From Escherichia phage PhiR12_5: a stretch of DNA of 53,384 nucleotides. Both the position numbers and the translations under genes were made by a program. Under the pieces are notes generated by a model, which saw nothing but the letters and a program-made list of their open reading frames with translations, was not told where the DNA came from and made no database searches. The number at the start of each line of letters is the position of its first letter. Position 1 is the stretch's first letter. The DNA is taken from the sequence record PV340554; one strand, 5' to 3'. Of this stretch, positions 17,283 to 18,039 are shown piece after piece.

Positions 17283-17996
17283 ATGGCGACTCAAATTTCC
17301 GTTGAAACTCTTTCCCCAATTGCCTACAACCAGATCCCCGTAATTACTACAGAATTATTGGCGCAATTGTATGGCACTGAAACAGTCAATATAAAAATGA
17401 ATTTTTCCCGTAACTCTGCGCGATTTGTACAGGGAAAACATTTCTTTAAGTTGGAAGGGAATGAACTACGTGAGTTCAAGCACAGACTATCTTTAAGCGA
17501 GTCTGTTAGCCGCGAGGTAACAGAAAGTTACTCTGTGAAAATCGCCCGCAATGTTCGCTCCCTCATCCTCTGGACAGAACGAGGCGCAGCCCGTCACGCA
17601 AAAATGCTAGAAACCGATCAGGCGTGGGATGTGTTCGAAAAACTGGAAGACTGCTATTTCAGCCAGTGCGAGAAAAATACTGGCAAACAAGAGAAGAAGC
17701 TCAACGGGCTTTCCGCAAAAGAAACAGACAGCCTTGTATGGCTGTGGGATTATGCCAACCGCTCACAGGCATTGTTCCGTGAGTTGTATCCCGCATTAAA
17801 ACTGATTCAGTCTGGCTATTCCGGCATATGCCACGACTACGGCTATGAGTTCTCGTATATCATCGGGAGGGCGAGGGGCGTTTTAATTAATCACACGCGG
17901 GATATAGATATTTATGAGCCTGACGGGCCGACGAACCTTCTGGCATGGGAAAGGCTTAAGAACAAAGAGTTGCCGCCTTCACTGCATCGCTACTGA
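17283..17996 (+). CDS. ORF6N-domain antirepressor-like protein
   Basis: N-terminal ORF6N-type motif ([37 protein letters not shown]); C-terminal ~95 aa identical to the Bro-N protein at 41783..42697. Confidence 0.7.
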
Positions 17997-18039
17997 CAAT
18001 TGACAACTTAACAAACCCAGCTTCGGCTGGGTTTTTTAT
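17702..18039. repeat. Direct repeat copy 1 (~338 bp): 3' end of ORF6N gene plus terminator
   Basis: Near-identical to 42403..42740 (offset 24701 bp). Confidence 0.8.
18013..18039 (+). terminator. Rho-independent terminator
   Basis: cccagc-ttcg-gctggg followed by TTTTTT; duplicated at 42714..42740. Confidence 0.6.

Follow-up and report, generated by a model that had tools for sequence, protein, structure and literature searches.

Described antirepressor systems and the PhiR12_5 locus

In phage P1, the immI antirepressor operon is under the control of C4 RNA. In Gifsy-1, an antirepressor-like gene is expressed from the isrK promoter, and its translation is turned on by the IsrK RNA (PMC4825925). 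P22 Ant, the namesake of the Pfam family P22_AR_C, inactivates several repressors and is not required when P22 itself is induced, and trans-acting antirepressors coordinate the induction of co-resident prophages (PMC3121763). Here we describe two antirepressor-type genes of Escherichia phage PhiR12_5 (sequence record PV340554), one in the nin region and one among the tail genes, which carry different N-terminal domains and end in a near-identical direct repeat of 338 bp encoding a P22_AR_C domain and a terminator. The window, by which we mean the whole stretch of 53,384 nucleotides analyzed, is the 53-kb genome of a lambda-type temperate E. coli phage, with the gene order int, recombination genes, N, cI, cro, cII, O, P, nin region, Q, lysis genes, Nu1/A, head genes, and tail genes Z to J. 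A literature search on the PhiR12 phages yielded nothing relevant.

In the nin-region cassette, a putative promoter, an isrK/C4-target RNA, and a C4 antisense RNA precede an ORF6N-type ant gene, an arrangement resembling P1 immI and Gifsy-1 isrK-anrP. Gifsy-1 isrK-orf45-anrP and P1 immI (c4-icd-ant) likewise have an antirepressor-like gene after an isrK/C4-target RNA and a C4-family RNA, with a promoter of its own and a terminator that is leaky. They differ from the PhiR12_5 cassette in that, on reading its sequence, no obvious orf45- or icd-like leader open reading frame (ORF) abuts the ant start, and its regulation is proposed from homology only. The nin 'Ant' genes of Shiga toxin (Stx) and lambdoid phages (VT2-Sakai ant, phage 2851 antB, Nil2 antA/antB, Min27, and phi24B) occupy the same site, after ninE and before roi-ninG-Q, and have the same ORF6N plus P22_AR_C architecture, the 338-bp block at 98.3 to 100% identity, and the isrK plus C4 leader. 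In contrast, the first ~250 to 270 bp of the PhiR12_5 gene (~85 to 90 residues, most of ORF6N) represent a different variant, which megablast did not find in 5,426 complete E. coli genomes and which is present in draft genomes and metagenomes.

The tail cassette, which resembles P22 immI, opens with a divergent Mnt-like gene and a Pant-like promoter, followed by an Arc-like gene, sar, and a Bro-N-type ant gene. In P22, immI (mnt, Pant, arc, sar RNA, and ant) has the same layout, with sar over the ant ribosome-binding site, and it also lies among late/tail genes. The PhiR12_5 cassette differs from it in having Bro-N instead of P22_AR_N, a ClpP-like gene on the divergent arm, and a position between tail genes L and K of a lambda-type siphovirus.

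At the level of domains, the Pfam families found here are those of the domain-swapping Bro network, from whose list all three combinations present in the window (ORF6N-P22_AR_C, Bro-N-P22_AR_C, and pRha-ANT) are drawn, with the swap point at a domain boundary (PMC10111431). The shared-domain architecture is already known and common, and public databases already contain annotations of these proteins. A domain-swapping network was reportedly also described by Iyer, Koonin and Aravind in 2002. What goes beyond the Bro network in PhiR12_5 is that two members of one genome share a module at the DNA level and appear to exchange sequence; nothing essential differs.

One domain and its terminator are shared by the two genes

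An ungapped comparison of positions 17702 to 18039 with positions 42403 to 42740 gives a single mismatch in 338 bp, G at 17707 versus A at 42408. The initial annotation of this DNA, made from the letters alone, had noticed a direct repeat of ~338 bp, terminator included, shared by two antirepressor genes 24.7 kb apart; the pairwise alignment confirms this at 337/338 identical positions, with no sign of a lower identity, and the copies are in direct orientation at a spacing of 24,701 bp. Such a match in 53 kb cannot be explained by chance. A repeat scan of the whole window shows this pair to be the sole direct-repeat family of at least 40 nt and finds no inverted repeats.

Each copy lies on the plus strand and contains the last 295 nt of its gene, including the stop codon, followed by the 3' untranslated region and the terminator: copy 1 (17702 to 18039) belongs to the ORF6N-type ant gene of the nin region and copy 2 (42403 to 42740) to the Bro-N-type ant gene in the insert between tail genes L and K, ending 11 nt before the K start codon. 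Homology ends sharply at 18039/42740, 2 bases past the T-run of the hairpin CCCAGC-TTCG-GCTGGG-TTTTTTAT, and the intrinsic terminator of copy 1 (hairpin and T-run, 18013 to 18039, plus strand) has an identical counterpart at 42714 to 42740. On the other side, weaker homology extends 20 bp upstream to 17682/42383, where 16 identical bases precede a mismatched patch of 4 bases (17698 to 17701), and the repeat itself starts four codons ahead of the Pfam P22_AR_C start. The repeat unit is thus one protein domain plus its terminator. The 16-mer, GGCAAACAAGAGAAGA (17682 to 17697 and 42383 to 42398), codes for GKQEK and is a swap point for different N-terminal domains, acting like a conserved module-boundary sequence. 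A -35-like TTGACA in the shared 3' untranslated region (18000 to 18005) was considered as a roi promoter and rejected for want of a usable -10.

Pfam analysis bears out the further proposal that two different N-terminal domains are joined to the same C-terminal domain. The nin-region gene (17283 to 17996, plus strand) encodes 237 amino acids with ORF6N at residues 12 to 108 (73.3 bits) and P22_AR_C at residues 138 to 209 (83.1 bits), and the tail-region gene (41783 to 42697, plus strand) encodes 304 amino acids with Bro-N at residues 20 to 110 (73.3 bits), a linker, and P22_AR_C at residues 204 to 276 (88.4 bits). The shared C-terminal segment of 104 residues, analyzed by itself as the initial annotation had suggested, scores 85.4 bits for P22_AR_C. 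Both proteins and the shared segment therefore pass the gathering cut-off of this family (PF10548, 22.4 bits), and both N-terminal domains come from the Bro-N network list. A third member of the same domain-swapping network is the Roi-like gene (18065 to 18793, plus strand; Phage_pRha and ANT/KilAC domains), which starts 25 nt past copy 1.

The sister phages PhiR12_1 and PhiR12_4, which were deposited separately, have the same two copies with the same single mismatch, and the E. coli chromosome GCA_054792675.1 encodes both exact Ant proteins 24.4 kb apart. The repeat is thus no artefact of a single assembly.

Mosaic origin of the block and a probable recent exchange between its copies

To place the block among its relatives, we used the 429 IMG/VR loci that encode a relative of the C-terminal segment, the best 80 of which served for comparing blocks and N-terminal parts; a homologue search with the 104-residue segment returned mostly short fragments and gave no census of partners. 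Among these 80 loci, dozens of nin-region genes have a 338-bp block that is 100% identical in DNA sequence, the N-terminal parts fall into 29 distinct variants (25 ORF6N, 2 Bro-N, and 2 P22_AR_N), and the roi alleles downstream of the block are only 78 to 100% identical. KilA-N also exists as an N-terminal partner (protein P0022), and other Bro-N proteins are alike through GKQE and then continue into an unrelated C terminus. These patterns suggest that the block reached both contexts through ordinary mosaic recombination at the domain boundary, marked by the GKQEK-coding 16-mer, and at the terminator.

Unrelated prophage backbones repeatedly combine a nin-type with a tail-type P22_AR_C gene: those of E. 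coli EC100, NCTC9112, and LZSFT34 have the same nin ant and roi genes and the same L-ClpP-Arc-Arc-BroN ant-K arrangement. Per 338 sites, the two copies differ at 5 positions in EC100, 6 in NCTC9112, 5 in LZSFT34, and 1 in the window. When the tail regions of the window and NCTC9112 are compared, the 1,562 flanking bp (562 bp on the left side of ant, 600 bp encoding the Bro-N part, and 400 bp at the start of K) contain one difference, versus five in the 358-bp block, all of them within 137 bp (Fisher p = 0.0011). At these five informative sites (17724, 17727, 17744, 17756, and 17860 in copy-1 numbering), the window's tail copy has the alleles of its own nin copy, and most tail-lineage relatives carry the other allele set. 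The minimal putative gene-conversion tract in copy 2 therefore spans 42425 to 42561 (plus strand), with five nin-type alleles, and could reach 42409 to 42740. Across genomes, tail copies show all intermediate mosaics (GAATC, AGATC, GAGCT, and AGGCT); with all four combinations present at adjacent sites, the four-gamete test is violated, which requires recombination within the block. Moreover, IMG/VR contig 643348545_000013 contains both genes and has the alternative haplotype in both copies, a pattern that looks like concerted evolution. As in concerted evolution of dispersed repeats, copies within a genome are closer to each other than to their positional counterparts, haplotypes are patchworks, and differences cluster between identical flanks, but the scale here is very small (338 bp and five sites) and co-resident prophages may donate as well.

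We therefore favor, with a probability of about 0.8, the reading that PhiR12_5 carries a shared module of P22_AR_C and Rho-independent terminator in two separately controlled cassettes, of mosaic origin and with recent conversion. A recent non-reciprocal exchange would have replaced 137 bp or more of the tail copy by nin-type sequence, and gene conversion probably keeps the two copies almost identical; its direction and intragenomic origin are those that the allele distribution suggests. So read, the feature is ordinary phage module shuffling and matters little beyond housekeeping, although it provides a clean, well-bounded case of a lambdoid module swap at a domain boundary and terminator, with dispersed copies that still seem to exchange sequence.

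Several points weigh against this reading. The conversion tract is defined by just five informative sites, and the 5' marker bases of the block are not strictly tied to context across more diverged alleles, occurring in both. The donor could have been the nin-type copy of another co-resident prophage instead of the phage's own copy 1, or the whole insert could have been acquired with the nin-type allele already in place. At least 24 contigs (the index lists 35 blocks) encode the exact Bro-N Ant protein, which is widespread in E. coli assemblies and occurs in two or more tail-gene backgrounds, lambda-type and HK97-type. On the functional side, antirepressor activity is predicted for both proteins on the basis of their homology to P22 Ant and their immI-type surroundings. 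A sequence search of the PDB gave no solved structure of a relative, and the AlphaFold2 model of the Bro-N Ant protein, built on a 19-sequence alignment, has a mean predicted local distance difference test (pLDDT) score of 46 and is too poor for use (the shared C-terminal segment reaches 60 to 68 and is predicted to be all-helical). Finally, the phage's own CI is probably RecA-cleavable, in which case an antirepressor is not needed.

An explanation without any intragenomic conversion would have the L-K insert recently acquired as a unit that already contained the nin-type block, so that the identity of the copies merely reflects a coincidence of alleles meeting in one genome. This would fit the nin-type haplotype being by far the commonest allele in public data, the presence of the exact Bro-N Ant protein in both tail backgrounds, and the clear mobility of the insert, which is exactly what PhiR12_2 lacks (40629 to ~42751). 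Yet it merely shifts the exchange to an earlier genome, since tail-lineage relatives with an identical Bro-N part have a different haplotype, and the second, independent genome with the alternative haplotype in both copies is hard to ascribe to coincidence. We regard acquisition as a unit as somewhat unlikely and retain mosaic origin followed by conversion as the preferred reading.

Two antirepressor-type cassettes with separate predicted controls

In terms of annotation, the window holds two complete immI-type cassettes, one P1/Gifsy-like and one P22-like, and not two stray 'ant' genes. In the nin region, a promoter-like site, TTGACG-18-TATATT (17005 to 17034, plus strand), recognized by its 10 of 12 consensus matches, lies just upstream of an isrK-family RNA (RF01394; 17041 to 17118, plus strand; 76.3 bits versus an Rfam gathering threshold of 50) with its own terminator at 17097 to 17113. 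It is followed, in the ant leader, by a C4-family antisense RNA (RF01695; 17144 to 17228, plus strand; 74.4 bits versus a threshold of 45). In relatives, the isrK matches overlap the c4-a1b1 target family, and isrK and C4 occur together in 11 of 12 nin-type loci, including that of the Ant gene of VT2-Sakai. The exact nin-region protein is always found in the context NinE/Dam-ant-roi-ninG-Q. Two leader ORFs are visible, a 14-codon ORF at 17149 to 17193 and a GTG-started, out-of-frame ORF at 17110 to 17343, neither of which is a clear icd or orf45 equivalent.

The insert that contains the tail-region ant gene is 2.1 kb long and separates tail genes L and K. Its divergent arm ends with a ClpP-like protease gene (40685 to 41221, minus strand; Pfam CLP_protease, 45 bits), preceded by a divergent Arc/Mnt-like ribbon-helix-helix gene (41221 to 41493, minus strand), for which sister records annotate 82 amino acids from 41469. 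A Pant-like promoter, TTGACT-16-TAGTAT (41520 to 41547, plus strand), lies among repeated GTGTAG(C/T)A half-sites, and the nearby palindrome TGTAGCA-T-TGCTACA (41477 to 41491) together with these half-sites forms a candidate operator. An Arc-like ribbon-helix-helix gene (41580 to 41720, plus strand) then stands directly upstream of ant in the same orientation; the two ribbon-helix-helix genes score 46.8 and 32.6 bits for Pfam Arc. A full-length sar antisense RNA (RF00262; 41715 to 41781, minus strand; 69.4 bits versus a gathering threshold of 43) is complementary to the ant ribosome-binding region, with a minus-strand promoter-like site at 41817 to 41789 and a terminator at 41750 to 41719, and sar is present in all seven tail-type loci examined. 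The sar homologue inside the insert identifies the latter as a P22 immI-like cassette; since the N terminus of its Ant is Bro-N and not P22_AR_N, it is an immI-like cassette with a swapped Ant N-terminal domain and holds no strict P22 Ant orthologue.

Three side observations concern this insert. All relatives of the insert that were examined keep the ClpP-like gene. HK97-type relatives carry, between tail genes M and L and immediately upstream of this insert, an ompC-like porin gene (contig L088, 3601 to 4764; also L090, L092, and L094 to L096). Database proteins of 483 residues (P0133 to P0135) with Bro-N, P22_AR_C, JAB, and NlpC/P60 look like fusions of Ant and K without the stop codon and terminator of ant, and could be real deletions or gene-calling artefacts.

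Neither ant gene belongs to the LexA-controlled small antirepressor class (Gifsy GfoA/GftA type). The Gifsy antirepressors lie ~1.3 kb downstream of replication genes, beside dinI, and are LexA controlled; in the window, no LexA box (CTGT-N8-ACAG) lies near either ant gene, and the only promoter-proximal pair is at 53101 to 53144. This pair consists of two perfect consensus sites (53101 to 53116 and 53129 to 53144), 12 bp apart, at the genome's right end beside a dinI homologue annotated in sister phages. The window has five LexA-box consensus sites in all versus ~0.6 expected.

The phage's own CI (12364 to 13071) has an S24 peptidase domain, so SOS induction is probably independent of these Ant proteins. 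By analogy with P22 Ant and other trans-acting antirepressors, the two genes would most likely let the phage act on the repressors of other prophages, or on superinfecting phages, under two independent RNA-gated controls. A different explanation holds that selection maintains the identity of the copies, with the C-terminal domain contacting the same target or allowing mixed oligomers, and the C4/IsrK RNAs and Mnt/Arc/sar forming the two inputs of a switch. The recurrence of the nin-type and tail-type pair in unrelated prophages, the dedicated control of each gene by separate elements, and the action of P22 Ant on several repressors (PMC3121763) are in line with it. However, the copies in sister prophages differ by 5 to 6 bases, including the amino acid changes T/A, D/N, and I/T, and the tail copy of O157 Stx phages is only ~89% identical to the block. 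Identity of the copies is thus not required, and we find selection for it distinctly unlikely. Improbable as well is the stronger version, in which the two cassettes form a deliberate two-input induction switch with one target or co-assembly through the identical C-terminal domain, and conversion keeps this output domain matched as the repressor evolves.

The predicted 24.7-kb rearrangement

The initial annotation had further proposed that the repeat is a substrate for homologous recombination that would delete or invert ~24.7 kb spanning Q, lysis, head, and most tail genes. The content of the interval is as described: roi, ninG, and Q, the lysis and head genes, and tail genes from Z to L lie between the copies. 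As for the block being a recombination substrate, the short gene-conversion patches discussed above speak for it, and the 24.7-kb deletion joint is seen only on unverified contigs. Inversion does not hold: with the copies in direct orientation, a crossover yields a deletion, or a duplication between sister molecules, and never an inversion. With the deletion, the phage would lose roi, ninG, and Q, the lysis genes, cos/Nu1, A, every head gene, tail genes Z to L, and the greater part of the insert. Neither product should be packageable as a viable lambda-type phage, and the deletion would be carried only by a defective prophage. If such a crossover occurs in lysogens, it offers one simple route from an intact to a defective prophage.

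Searches for the crossover products gave few candidates. The deletion joint does not occur in the 5,426 complete E. coli genomes, a weak test because this ORF6N variant is itself absent there, and the only two of these genomes that cover at least 80% of the reciprocal query both have a different, P22_AR_N-type nin gene and are no crossover product. Exact flank-block-flank patterns in IMG/VR gave 0 deletion joints and 0 reciprocal joints versus 22 nin and 26 tail parental joints. Three IMG/VR contigs that matched relaxed junction patterns based on the 5' marker bases are not crossovers and have parental flank pairs with diverged blocks. The deletion joint is present on two metagenome contigs from ERZ506394 and ERZ507803, L153 (2,953 bp, 2.9x coverage; colinear from ninB through the ORF6N ant gene and the block to K) and L154 (1,131 bp, ~3x coverage), and the reciprocal joint on a draft-genome contig, L092 (13.2 kb, GCA_011862085.1), in the order L, ClpP, Arc, Arc, Bro-N ant, block, roi, ninG, Q. 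All three contigs may be assembly chimeras produced by path switching inside the 358-bp repeat. A repeat of this length can break or mis-join short-read assemblies of prophages like this one, and L092, L153, and L154 should be treated with caution.

These three contigs are also what could be cited for a functional recombination site at which a programmed 24.7-kb deletion or inversion switches the prophage state. This is highly improbable, as the direct repeats rule out inversion, the block has no associated site-specific recombinase, the joint is absent from both the complete genomes and IMG/VR (0 versus 48 parental joints), the recombinant contigs are short and of low coverage, as expected of chimeras at a 358-bp repeat, and losing cos, Q, and the lysis and head genes would kill the phage. 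The idea that the near-identity is an assembly or consensus artefact, with reads of one copy polishing the other, has a negligible chance of being right: short-read polishing can homogenise repeats of this size, but the pair with one mismatch recurs in PhiR12_1 and PhiR12_4, both exact proteins are found in an independent chromosome assembly, and the 5' marker bases stay distinct between the copies.

Sister phages and other features of the genome

The window is 99.997% identical to PhiR12_2 across 1965 to 38065 and 99.75% identical to PhiR12_1 across 1565 to 48681, and its first letter lies 1,564 bp ahead of the start of the PhiR12_1 record. An IS1222/IS3-family ribosomal frameshift element (695 to 812, minus strand, 157 bits) is located in the first 1.5 kb, beyond the PhiR12_1 record. 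The PhiR12 sister phages have a 2.6-kb IS21-family insertion (transposase and IstB) in the tail-fibre region (10597 to 13176 of L004) that the window lacks at the corresponding site (~49690 to 49697), and the L-K insert is a present/absent difference among PhiR12 siblings as well.

The recombination gene annotated as Bet is of the ERF type by Pfam. Adjoining cI, at the position of lambda rexA/rexB, an ORF on the minus strand (11258 to 12283, 341 amino acids) has no Pfam match on record and is named 'T2SS GspM containing protein' in sister records. Just 3' of Q, an STnc100-family small RNA (20292 to 20497, plus strand) is followed by a SASA-family esterase gene (20721 to 22703, plus strand, 660 amino acids), which occupies the position that the toxin genes have in Stx phages.

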